64,000 bases of DNA from the sequence record MN850636.1. One strand, written 5' to 3'. Origin of the DNA: Escherichia phage dune. Of the stretch, positions 42,995 through 46,228 are shown piece after piece. The notes below the pieces were generated by a model, which was not told the DNA's origin, made no database searches, and was given only the letters and a program-made list of their open reading frames with translations. Made by a program: the position numbers and the translations under genes. Position 1 is the first letter of the stretch. Every line of letters begins with the position of its first letter.

Positions 42995-43208
42995 TAAAGA
43001 TAACAAATATAATAACGCCGTCCTTACAGAAGATGGTGAGCTTGAAACATTCATTCTTCGTGTTGATGGTAAACTATTCCGGTGTCGTTGTGGGTCAAAC
43101 TGTTTTCATAAACCAGATAAAAATGACTTAGAGCTTTACGCATGTAATGCTTGCAATACTTGGTATCACTCAGAGGTTAAAAATGACAATTCTATACAAA
43201 CAAAATAA
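42990..43208 (+). CDS. Small zinc-binding protein (CxC..CxxC)
   Basis: RCRCGSNCFH and CNACNTW. Confidence 0.4.
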   Translation: MDKDNKYNNAVLTEDGELETFILRVDGKLFRCRCGSNCFHKPDKNDLELYACNACNTWYHSEVKNDNSIQTK

Positions 43209-44283
43209 AGATGGCTCTTTTAACGTCTGGTCATGCGTTGCTGTAGGTAACAAAGTTATTACAACCTACGGTAAAGAAAATGGCAAGATGATGTTTGAAG
43301 AGTATACAGCAGAACCTAAAAACATCGGTAAAAAGAATGAGCGTAACGCTGAACAGCAAGCTCTCTTTGAAGTTGCTGCTAAGTACAAAAAGCAAGTTGA
43401 CCGCAAAGGTTATGCTTACACAAAAGAGTCTGCACAGAATACTGAAAAGGCAGGTGTACAGCTTGCTCATGATGCTGCAAAGGTTAGCCACGCAAAGTAT
43501 TTGAAGTTCCCTGCTGATGCTCAACCAAAACTTGATGGTGTACGTTGCAGAATTTCAAGAGATGCTGATTCAGTTAGTTTCACGGCTTATTCTCGTGAGA
43601 ATACTGTTTACAACGTTCCAGCAGAACTAATCCCAGATTTGCTTTTGCTGCTTAAATTACACCCGCAAGTTGAAGACTTTGATGGCGAGATTTATGCTCA
43701 TGGTTGGGACTTAGAAGATATTGTATCTATGATTAAGAATGCTGACAATCCAGACCGTCACCTTCTTAAATTCTACTGGTATGATATCTGTGACAATTCA
43801 AAATCTTGGCCTGAGCGTCGTGAAGTTATTGATAACTCACCTATTGTTGAGCTTGGGGATGCCTGTAGAGTTGTTCCTGTACAGACTATCCGTGTAAATT
43901 CTTGGGAAGAGTTTGATGAAGCTCATGATAAGTGGGTTGAAGCTAAGTTTGAAGGTGCAATGTACCGTTCAATCTCTGAAGACTCATTCTATGAGTGTTG
44001 TCACCGTTCATACTTCTTGATTAAGCACAAGAAGATGCACACTGAAGAGTTTAAAGTGACTGGTGTAAAGACTGATAAACGTGGTCATGGTAAGTTCGTT
44101 GTAGAGACTCTTCCTAACGTCTTTGTAGATGTCTCATGGAAGACTACTCATGAGAAGAAACAGTATCTTGCTGAGCATCCTGATGAGTTTATCGGGAAAC
44201 CTTTAACGGTACAGTTCCAGAAGATGACTCGTAAGGGGTCTTTGCAGTTCCCTGTTGGGCTAGTTATACGAGATTATGAATAA
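43183..44283 (+). CDS. ATP-dependent DNA ligase (start moved to MTILYKQ)
   Basis: GAGGT RBS; adenylation motif KLDGVRC (KxDG). Confidence 0.8.
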   Translation: MTILYKQNKDGSFNVWSCVAVGNKVITTYGKENGKMMFEEYTAEPKNIGKKNERNAEQQALFEVAAKYKKQVDRKGYAYTKESAQNTEKAGVQLAHDAAKVSHAKYLKFPADAQPKLDGVRCRISRDADSVSFTAYSRENTVYNVPAELIPDLLLLLKLHPQVEDFDGEIYAHGWDLEDIVSMIKNADNPDRHLLKFYWYDICDNSKSWPERREVIDNSPIVELGDACRVVPVQTIRVNSWEEFDEAHDKWVEAKFEGAMYRSISEDSFYECCHRSYFLIKHKKMHTEEFKVTGVKTDKRGHGKFVVETLPNVFVDVSWKTTHEKKQYLAEHPDEFIGKPLTVQFQKMTRKGSLQFPVGLVIRDYE

Positions 44284-44289
44284 AAGTTG

Positions 44290-44317
44290 TTGACATAGAA
44301 AATTTGGTGAGTATACT
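44290..44317 (+). promoter_or_regulatory. Sigma70-type promoter TTGACA-N16-TATACT
   Basis: Consensus -35 and near-consensus -10 hexamers; drives a long leader containing the first GT-rich array. Confidence 0.5.
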
Positions 44318-44319
44318 GA

Positions 44320-44660
44320 GCAGCATAAACCAACGGGTACTCACCAGCATCACTTAAGAGTCTTTTAAAAGGGTTTTTAAGTGATGTGTAGCTCGGTCAG
44401 GTATGGTGCGGTGGTGTAAGGTGGTGTCAGGTGTAGTATGGTGCTGTGATGTGAGGTATGGGTAGTTAGTCTCAGCTACATTAAAATGAGACTCACCTTT
44501 TTAAAAGGCCTTTTAAGAGGGTCTTTTAATGAGGTGGGGTGGTGTAAGGTGGTGTAAGGTCTGGTTCGGTGTGTCGCGGTAAGGGTGGATGGTAGTAGCC
44601 ACGTTAAAAATCTACCAAGTTTCTAAAGAGTCTTCTGTTGAGGGTTCTTTACAAACAACT
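44320..44660 (+). repeat. GT-rich/hairpin composite repeat array 1 (G+T tracts, conserved-loop hairpins at 44468-44493 and 44591-44616, conserved roughly 40 nt AT-rich element at 44496-44535)
   Basis: Top strand nearly C-free within GT tracts; units repeat in a second array at 45758-46145. Confidence 0.6.
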
Positions 44661-44674
44661 TAACAATCAACTAA

Positions 44675-45280
<606 letters not shown>

Positions 45281-45282
45281 TT

Positions 45283-45723
45283 ATGAATACAAAAGCATTA
45301 GCAGCAAAGTTCAGTTACGGTGACACTGTATCACATTCTGAGATGGACACCTTCTTAGGTATTGTGAAGCCAACTTATCAAGGTGACATTGTTAAGTACG
45401 AAGATGAAATGAAGGCTTACGCACTGACACGGTTAAATCGACTTGAGAAGTTTATTGAGAAGCTTCTTAAAGAAGAGAAGATTTATCTGGTTGCTTCAAT
45501 GGGTGTTGGTTATCGTGTGGTTGAACCTAAGCATCAAGCAACTATTGCAAAACGCAAAATGTCTGGTAAAATTGGTCGTGCTTTAAAGCAAGCCACTCAA
45601 GCGATTGAGAATGTGAACACTATGGCGCTTAGCCATCAAGAACGTTCACGACTGATTGAACAGCAAAACCACTTAGCTGCTATGAAAGCTAACATTAATA
45701 AGCAACGTAGAAAACCTTTCTAA
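45283..45723 (+). CDS. Hypothetical coiled-coil protein
   Basis: 146 aa ORF, tightly coupled to upstream gene. Confidence 0.5.
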   Translation: MNTKALAAKFSYGDTVSHSEMDTFLGIVKPTYQGDIVKYEDEMKAYALTRLNRLEKFIEKLLKEEKIYLVASMGVGYRVVEPKHQATIAKRKMSGKIGRALKQATQAIENVNTMALSHQERSRLIEQQNHLAAMKANINKQRRKPF

Positions 45724-45730
45724 GTTGACT

Positions 45731-45757
45731 AGGTAGCCTCTTCGGAGGCTCCTTTTT
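45731..45757 (+). terminator. Rho-independent terminator (AGCCTC-TTCG-GAGGCT plus TTTTT)
   Basis: Tetraloop hairpin with downstream T-run. Confidence 0.6.
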
Positions 45758-46145
45758 AAAAGGTCTTTAAACAGGGTCTTTTAATGAGGTACGGCGCGGT
45801 TAGGTAAGGTCTGGTAGGGTAGGGTGAGGTTTGGTAAAGTGCGGGTAGTTAATCGGAGCTACATTAAAATCCGATTACATCACTTAAGAGTCTTCTAAGA
45901 GGGTTTTTAAGTGATGTTCGGTAGGGTCTGGTAGGGTAAGGTCTGGTCTGGTAGGGTCTGGTAGGGTGAGGTATGGGTAGTTAGTCTCAGCCACATTAAA
46001 ATGAGACTTACCTTTTTAAAAGGTCTTTAAACAGGGTGTTTTAATAAGGTGCTGTATGGTGGGGTAAGGTAGGGTTAGGCGAGGTCAGGTGAGTTTTGGT
46101 ATGGAAGGATGGCAGTAACCTTATAAAAAATCTGCCAAATAAGCT
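45758..46145 (+). repeat. GT-rich/hairpin composite repeat array 2 (hairpins at 45851-45876, 45983-46008, 46110-46137; conserved element at 46010-46050)
   Basis: Same unit architecture as array 1; hairpin stems differ but loops share ACATTAAAAT. Confidence 0.6.
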
Positions 46146-46155
46146 ATAAAGTCTG

Positions 46156-46184
46156 TTGACAAGTCAGGTGTTATAGCTTATTTT
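46156..46184 (+). promoter_or_regulatory. Candidate promoter TTGACA-N17-TATTTT
   Basis: Consensus -35, weak -10. Confidence 0.35.
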
Positions 46185-46228
46185 TATACTCAACGTAATA
46201 CAAAATTTAATATAACTTTGAGGTCATT

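Follow-up and report, generated by a model that had tools for sequence, protein, structure and literature searches.

Two GT-rich hairpin arrays of Escherichia phage dune very probably belong to a type II VIPR system with guides predicted to target an integrated E. coli satellite

VIPR (Viral Interference Programmable Repeat), a recently described system in which RNA guides direct the recognition of DNA, silences DNA, is related to CRISPR and has been proposed to be ancestral to CRISPR effectors. In the accessible parts of the two 2026 preprints that describe it (10.64898/2026.04.26.720920 and 10.64898/2026.04.26.720927), it consists of a minimal RAMP protein, Vipr, with an RRM core, a G-loop and a thumb, of guide RNAs called vrRNAs, and usually of one vap gene. 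A vrRNA is defined there as 9-16 YNNGG repeats followed by an invariable ~40-nt tail that forms a hairpin and a pseudoknot. For phage SUSP1, the accessible text of the discovery preprint (10.64898/2026.04.26.720920) reports ~100-nt vrRNAs, their co-purification with Vipr and silencing of targets, using small-RNA sequencing, pull-down and GFP/lambda assays. The same text places vap, a predicted DNA-binding protein, after vipr in type II systems and defines the SUSP1 clade by more than 90% Vipr identity to SUSP1. The cryo-EM preprint (10.64898/2026.04.26.720927) describes Vipr as an open, helical, DNA-binding filament.

VIPR shares with class 1 CRISPR-Cas systems, built on a Cas7/Csm3 backbone, the RAMP fold, one protomer per fixed guide step with periodically flipped bases, and an array of guide units with a conserved handle per unit. 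It differs in lacking cas1/cas2 and contiguous spacers and in reading two of every five guide nucleotides, and, in the accessible preprint text, in pairing with double-stranded DNA with one base in three skipped, in silencing without cleavage and in being encoded by virulent phages. A CRISPR array was considered for the tracts described below and rejected, as the variable segment is broken by a near-invariant GGY every 5 nt and the only genes of the module are vipr and vap. The TRAP system of the Bacillus trp leader (11 (G/U)AG triplets with 2-3-nt spacers) has a similar period of ~5 nt and about a dozen triplets, with one subunit of an oligomeric protein on each, whereas VIPR has a GGY triplet, an open helical filament instead of a closed ring, informative spacers, and DNA targeting in place of attenuation. 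A TRAP-binding RNA was likewise discarded as an identity, the triplets being GGY and not (G/U)AG and the partner a RAMP filament, not an 11- or 12-mer ring.

Here, we analyzed a 64,000-nt stretch of phage dune (MN850636.1), referred to as the window, in which two GT-rich arrays bracket a pair of genes. We are highly confident that these arrays and their Vipr gene are a real, non-random and functional feature that is already known, namely, a type II VIPR system of the SUSP1 clade. The assignment is made because the first bracketed gene encodes a protein identical at 191 of 195 residues to PDB chain 36pp_D, "SUSP1 Vipr protein" (E 6e-128). As in SUSP1, the locus follows the DNA ligase gene, its Vipr and vap1 products are 98% and 99% identical to those of SUSP1, and the promoter, three tail types, spacer hairpins and YNNGG repeats are the same, as are the 1-nt skip rule and the E. 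coli satellite family in which the predicted targets lie. The two loci differ in their guides: SUSP1 has one vrRNA upstream of vipr-vap1 and three downstream, the window has two upstream and three downstream, and all four SUSP1 guides differ from the five of the window, which is otherwise a textbook example of the system.

Genes and signals of the locus

The source of the window is a Felix O1-like myovirus (Ounavirinae), and the 2.1 kb round the arrays matched 239 phage records at 80-96% identity, mainly Felixounavirus from Escherichia, Salmonella and Shigella. Units of ~130 nt occur twice in 44340-44660 and three times in 45758-46145, with vipr and the vap1 candidate between both arrays. The genes, signals and guide units, all on the + strand, are as follows.

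43147-44283, +: DNA ligase gene, preceding the upstream array
44290-44317, +: sigma-70-type promoter, TTGACA-16-TATACT, 11 of 12 consensus positions; same sequence in SUSP1 and mio
44387-44493, +: vr1, 15 YNNGG repeats (44387-44461) and a 32-nt tail (44462-44493)
44530-44616, +: vr2, 11 YNNGG repeats (44530-44584) and a type T2 tail (44585-44616)
44693-45280, +: vipr, 195 aa, RAMP fold
45283-45723, +: vap1 candidate, 146 aa, 99.3% identical to the gene after vipr in SUSP1
45735-45757, +: intrinsic terminator 3' of vap (45735-45750 plus T run)
45785-45876, +: vr3, 12 YNNGG repeats (45785-45844) and a tail (45845-45876; stem AATCGGA/TCCGATT)
45917-46008, +: vr4, 12 YNNGG repeats (45917-45976) and a tail (45977-46008; stem AGTCTCA/TGAGACT)
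46045-46136, +: vr5, 12 YNNGG repeats (46045-46104) and a type T3 tail (46105-46136; stem GGCAG/CTGCC)
46156-46184, +: promoter of the next gene, its -35 box inside the loop of the terminal hairpin 46137-46188

Vipr belongs to a large family, as more than 500 homologues of ~190 aa, none of them annotated, were recovered from phages and prophages of many phyla. A profile of these homologues matched a single entry among PDB sequences, 36pp (E 7e-82). The AlphaFold model of Vipr has a pLDDT of 94, and the nearest solved folds found with it by Foldseek are the Csm3/Cas7 RAMPs (E ~1e-4, probability 1.0). Reading the PDB alignment by eye, we find 13 of the 14 cryo-EM contact residues at the same positions (H17, K33, R39, E71, M72, K82, G87, K88, R138, C173, D177, W178, and R179). 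Residue 175 is Val in both 36pp_D and the window Vipr, while the cryo-EM preprint (10.64898/2026.04.26.720927) names T175 in the pyrimidine pocket, probably a slip of numbering or text. Pfam had no match for either bracketed gene, and PHROGs returned families of unknown function only.

The assignment of the second gene as a vap1 candidate rests on synteny and on identity to the SUSP1 gene. Its single-sequence model has a pLDDT of 68, with winged-helix regulators as the best, non-significant folds (E 0.24). Among 5.8 billion proteins, no Vap homologue was found outside its own 90% cluster except one 91-aa protein of 60% identity. Vap looks like a recent, lineage-specific addition.

The promoter at 44290-44317 would drive the upstream vrRNA array and vipr-vap. 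Ahead of the downstream array (45758-46145) stands the strong terminator at 45735-45757, and a promoter scan of that array gave no convincing promoter. The first-pass annotation had described the downstream array as lying between a terminator and the next promoter, and both signals were recovered where listed above. The three hairpins that it reported are present as well, at 45851-45857/45870-45876 (AATCGGA/TCCGATT), 45983-45989/46002-46008 (AGTCTCA/TGAGACT), and 46111-46115/46132-46136 (GGCAG/CTGCC), and their loops are indeed of one type, all A-rich and of the form GCYACATTAAAA. So is the conserved element of ~40 nt, found at 46010-46050. What had gone unnoticed is the pentamer period, and also that a long inverted repeat makes up the 40-nt element.

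Its proposal that one array is a second copy of the other also stands, as the arrays align over 165 nt at 75% identity (44396-44560 versus 45911-46075). The arrays are direct repeats of 60-76% identity, including an 85-nt family in four copies. The "flanked module" that had been suggested holds insofar as the two arrays and two genes make up one functional module, but not as regards the ends of a mobile cassette. Searches of the whole window with Rfam at gathering thresholds and with ARAGORN found no RNA family and no tRNA. These sequences have been annotated before as repeats: the "DR_4" direct repeats of wV8 (EU877232; L015 1663-1720 and 3056-3113) fall within the two arrays, and repeat_region features of phages Andreotti (L001 4778-4814) and heid, with no function assigned, are the same sequences.

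Guide repeats, tails and spacer hairpins

The GT-rich tracts have a strict 5-nt period, Y-N-N-G-G, with 11-15 pentamers each. Scanning for GT dinucleotides in phase (at least 7 of 12) located exactly five tracts in the 64 kb, all on the + strand and all within the two arrays. Repeat statistics were drawn from 354 repeats in 29 vrRNAs of eight phages. Position 1 is Y in 100% of repeats and position 5 is G in 98%, while position 4 is G in 80% and T or A in the other 20%. Entropy is 1.87 and 1.89 bits at the two N positions; among the 29 guides, 28 are unique. Thus GGY is conserved and NN hypervariable, while Vipr identity is 97.9% or higher across 116 phage records. In vr1, TG or AG replaces GG in 5 of 15 repeats; nevertheless, its target match, given below, is the best of the guides. 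Phage ESCO45 has the same vr4, and the same vr5 except for a single G/T change in one of its repeats, and vr3 occurs in no other phage of the eight sampled. As far as these comparisons reach, the guide set is specific to this phage.

Each vrRNA ends in a nearly invariant 32-nt tail that folds as a hairpin plus pseudoknot, and it is the stems of these 3' tails that the first-pass annotation had seen as hairpins. The eleven distinct tails form a gap-free alignment in which 90% of cells are paired. Both-side changes are found in 9 of 11 pairs, comprising three of four in the pseudoknot and six of seven in the stem. In the pseudoknot, the loop opens with 4 nt that pair with the 4 nt directly 3' of the last repeat, and three variants occur (GUAG/CUAC, GUGG/CCAC, and AAGG/CCUU). 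None of 500 shuffles reached the covariation score of the tails, and sliding the partner columns makes the pairing collapse.

The tail bears some resemblance to the Rfam family RF03084, "DUF2815 RNA", in having GGGUAG, a 7-bp stem and a loop of the form CC..AUU.AA. As an identity for the tail, this family was rejected: the match at 45974-46035 scores 20.3 bits against a gathering threshold of 41.2, and 54 IMG/VR loci with the RF03084 consensus (L039-L092) have no upstream YNNGG repeats and lie in 5' untranslated regions directly before a start codon. Judged by these loci, the likeness is superficial and implies no homology of function.

Every vrRNA is also flanked on both sides by an imperfect inverted repeat, giving hairpins of 14-19 bp. 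There are four spacer types, whose arms differ in sequence between types and stay mutually complementary. In the window they are placed as follows.

44347-44387, +: type A, before vr1; 19-bp stem, -18.0 kcal/mol, z -4.3
44495-44535, +: type B, between vr1 and vr2
44617-44658, +: type C, after vr2 and just before the vipr ribosome-binding site; -13.6 kcal/mol, z -2.3
45750-45790, +: type B, before vr3; its 5' arm is the T run of the vap terminator
45877-45917, +: type A, between vr3 and vr4; 19-bp stem, -24.7 kcal/mol, z -6.6
46010-46050, +: type B, between vr4 and vr5 (the 40-nt element); z -1.25
46137-46188, +: type D, terminal hairpin (AAATAAGCTATAA/TTATAGCTTATTT) plus T run, closing the array; 13 bp, -15.8 kcal/mol, z -3.4

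By minimum-energy folding, types A, C, and D are more stable than shuffled sequences; the type B copy after vr4 is not clearly so (z -1.25). In an alignment of 16 spacer variants, in which one loop G of the type C row was removed by hand so that the arms line up, the 14 outer pairs are 91% paired and seven of them change on both sides. One relative has a 21-nt insertion in a spacer loop with the arms kept. The 3' arm of a spacer extends into the following vrRNA by one or two apparent pentamers. Elsewhere in the 64-kb window the spacer motif has no match (0.02 expected by chance), for which reason a general phage promoter was rejected as its role. Type B alone has a weak sigma-70-like pair of hexamers when inspected by eye, which failed the criteria of the promoter scan.

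The spacer hairpins may delimit the mature vrRNAs and are candidate processing sites, for instance, for host RNase III or another double-strand-specific RNase. The accessible text of the discovery preprint (10.64898/2026.04.26.720920) mentions neither RNases nor precursors nor terminators, and covarying hairpins flanking the vrRNAs do not appear in that text either.

Predicted targets in an integrated satellite

When the locus was compared with 5,426 complete E. coli genomes by a distant BLAST search, an 86-nt vrRNA-like match was found in 55 chromosomes, lying inside an integrated element of roughly 10-12 kb. This element encodes a serine recombinase, a baseplate protein, a tape-measure protein, an HNH endonuclease and small open reading frames, and its family is present in 568 E. 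coli genomes. From its gene content and its being targeted, we infer that it is the satellite of the discovery paper. The NN strings of the five guides were scanned with the published 1-nt-skip rule against 11 satellite variants (L003-L013), with the following best matches.

vr1: tape-measure gene (e.g., L003 13495-13538), 28/30 NN, 93%
vr2: second tape-measure site (e.g., L006 5455-5486), 20/22 NN, 91%
vr3: intergenic, 46-80 nt upstream of a start codon (e.g., L007 8239-8273), 21/24 NN, 88%
vr4: no target in the 11 satellites, 19/26 NN, 73%, which is background
vr5: 387-nt satellite gene (e.g., L005 9330-9364), 22/24 NN, 92%

With skips of 0, 2, or 3, matches fall to the background of 15-19. 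When the order of the NNs was shuffled, 0 of 200 shuffles reached the scores of vr1, vr2, vr3, and vr5, and 26 of 200 reached that of vr4. In each of the three coding targets, the first paired base is codon position 1 and the skip falls on the wobble position. The vr1 and vr2 guides match complementary groups of tape-measure alleles, found in five and six satellites, respectively, so that jointly they cover all 11 sampled. Within the 64-kb window itself, the best 1-nt-skip matches are 15-21 out of 22-30 (at most 71%), a background level that gives no self-target.

For vr4, an exact scan of IMG/VR with the full 12-repeat pattern gave zero matches. Sub-patterns of nine repeats gave 3 and 16 matches, which do not extend past the fixed part (18-19/26) and were dismissed as chance.

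Extending the scan to guides from relatives and from one satellite, we find that 15 of 22 have an NN match of at least 80% in the same 11 E. coli loci. One of these 15 is the satellite's own guide, whose match is a host REP element outside the satellite. The published code, YNNGG read with a 1-nt skip, was re-derived and independently confirmed on guides outside the paper, using sequence tools alone. Four of the five guides of the window are predicted to aim at the integrated E. coli satellite, and their likely role is to repress this parasite during infection.

Combining these predictions with the mechanism in the preprints, the system would operate from five putative vrRNA genes round vipr and vap1, two upstream and three downstream. 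A precursor transcript would be cut at the 40-nt covarying hairpins, yielding mature vrRNAs, along each of which Vipr would polymerize with one protomer per pentamer, burying GGY and presenting NN. The NNs would then pair with double-stranded DNA in the register NNxNNx..., skipping one base in three, and satellite DNA bound by Vipr would be silenced at the level of transcription. More generally, GT-rich arrays with a period of 5 nt beside a ~190-aa gene should be classed as VIPR loci.

Cassette loss, competing readings and guide units without vipr

Among Felix O1-like phages, 230 records are similar to the arrays, and 116 of them have the full locus; Vipr at 90% identity or more was found in 117 Ounavirinae records. 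In the remaining records, the interval from the ligase gene to the gene that follows it is just 280-440 bp and holds one or two units. The first-pass annotation had asked whether relatives differ in carrying the two-gene cassette; they do, and about half of them lack it. The variable presence of the cassette between array remnants fits deletion by unit-to-unit recombination. Recombination between the repeated arrays may explain the loss of the cassette, as a side effect and not as the function of the arrays.

This variable presence (116 full records, the others with one or two units and no genes) is also what would be expected if the arrays acted at the DNA level, as the earlier annotation had proposed, being recombination hotspots, insulators or ends of a mobile two-gene cassette, and homologous recombination between direct repeats of 60-76% identity could lead to deletions. 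Yet all units lie on one strand, the stems keep their pairing through both-side changes as RNA structures do, external targets emerge from the NNs only when these are read with a 1-nt skip, the neighboring gene encodes an RNA-guided effector of solved structure, and the array borders have no transposase, integrase, or target-site duplication. The units are strand-specific guide-RNA genes with covarying tails and NNs that decode to satellite targets, which is where the DNA-level proposal fails, and we consider it very improbable.

Even less credit can be given to a cis-acting attenuator of the TRAP/trp-leader type, in which an oligomer bound to period-5 GGU triplets would switch a terminator of hairpin plus U run in its own operon. 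Such a reading could draw on triplets that recur with 2-nt spacers, 11-15 per tract, on the position of the upstream array between a strong promoter and the genes, and on the U runs after the tail hairpins, but the genes precede three of the five units, and attenuation does not need spacer dinucleotides that are hypervariable and match foreign DNA. Vipr, moreover, is an open helical filament that binds DNA (10.64898/2026.04.26.720927). A TRAP-like attenuator or SSB autoregulation had been our first idea and was dropped once the neighboring gene was identified as vipr. The GG every 5 nt and the GGTGGTG-like strings in vr1 and vr2 might instead recall G-quadruplex-forming or Chi-like DNA that modulates replication or RecBCD; here the best-conserved positions are Y1 and G5 rather than G-tracts, G4 being T or A in 20% of repeats, and the tails, the target matches and the neighboring Vipr gene would all go unexplained, so we attach almost no probability to it.

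Returning to the VIPR reading, the reduced loci of relatives retain guide units. Of two such loci that were opened, one (mio) holds a single vrRNA unit and the other (SWJM-02) two, and vipr and vap are missing from both. The units look intact.

mio, L016 2094-2190: orphan guide unit
SWJM-02, L017 2094-2347: orphan guide units

Both orphan guides of SWJM-02 match satellite sites, at 26/28 and 23/26, and one of the two sites (L009 11238-11275) overlaps the vrRNA gene that the satellite itself carries. The mio orphan guide has no satellite match (16/22). In ~113 further phage records besides these two, which together make up about half of the Felix O1-like phages, there are one or two intact-looking orphan units, and no Vipr is encoded elsewhere in the genome. 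Such orphan guide arrays in vipr-less phages are absent from the accessible text of the discovery preprint (10.64898/2026.04.26.720920).

The satellites have a guide as well. In E. coli EC12, the satellite carries its own vrRNA (L003 19985-20086), with 14 repeats and a T2-type tail that has a compensatory stem variant; the same guide occurs in L005, L006, and L009, and the satellites have neither vipr nor vap. Loci made up of guides alone, in phages that would have lost vipr and in satellites that would never have carried it, suggest that they borrow Vipr in trans. Decoded with a 1-nt skip, the satellite guide gives the E. coli REP/BIME consensus GTAGGCCTGATAAGCGTAGCGCATCAGGC together with flanking sequence. 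At a host BIME its match is 23/26, against a shuffle maximum of 18, and target-like sites are as follows.

L003 24575-24612: target-like site of the satellite guide
L094 2913-2950: target-like site of the satellite guide
L093 2793-2830: target-like site of the satellite guide

A REP-directed guide of this kind might divert the helper phage's Vipr onto the many chromosomal copies of REP. A REP-decoding satellite guide is likewise absent from the accessible text of the discovery preprint (10.64898/2026.04.26.720920). That all three proposals hold jointly, with hairpins as the maturation signal, guide-only loci borrowing Vipr in trans, and the REP guide diverting the helper's Vipr, is a tentative idea that we hold to be rather unlikely. 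The satellite guide matches at 26/26 in REP elements of Escherichia whittamii and of a Pseudocitrobacter metagenome-assembled genome.
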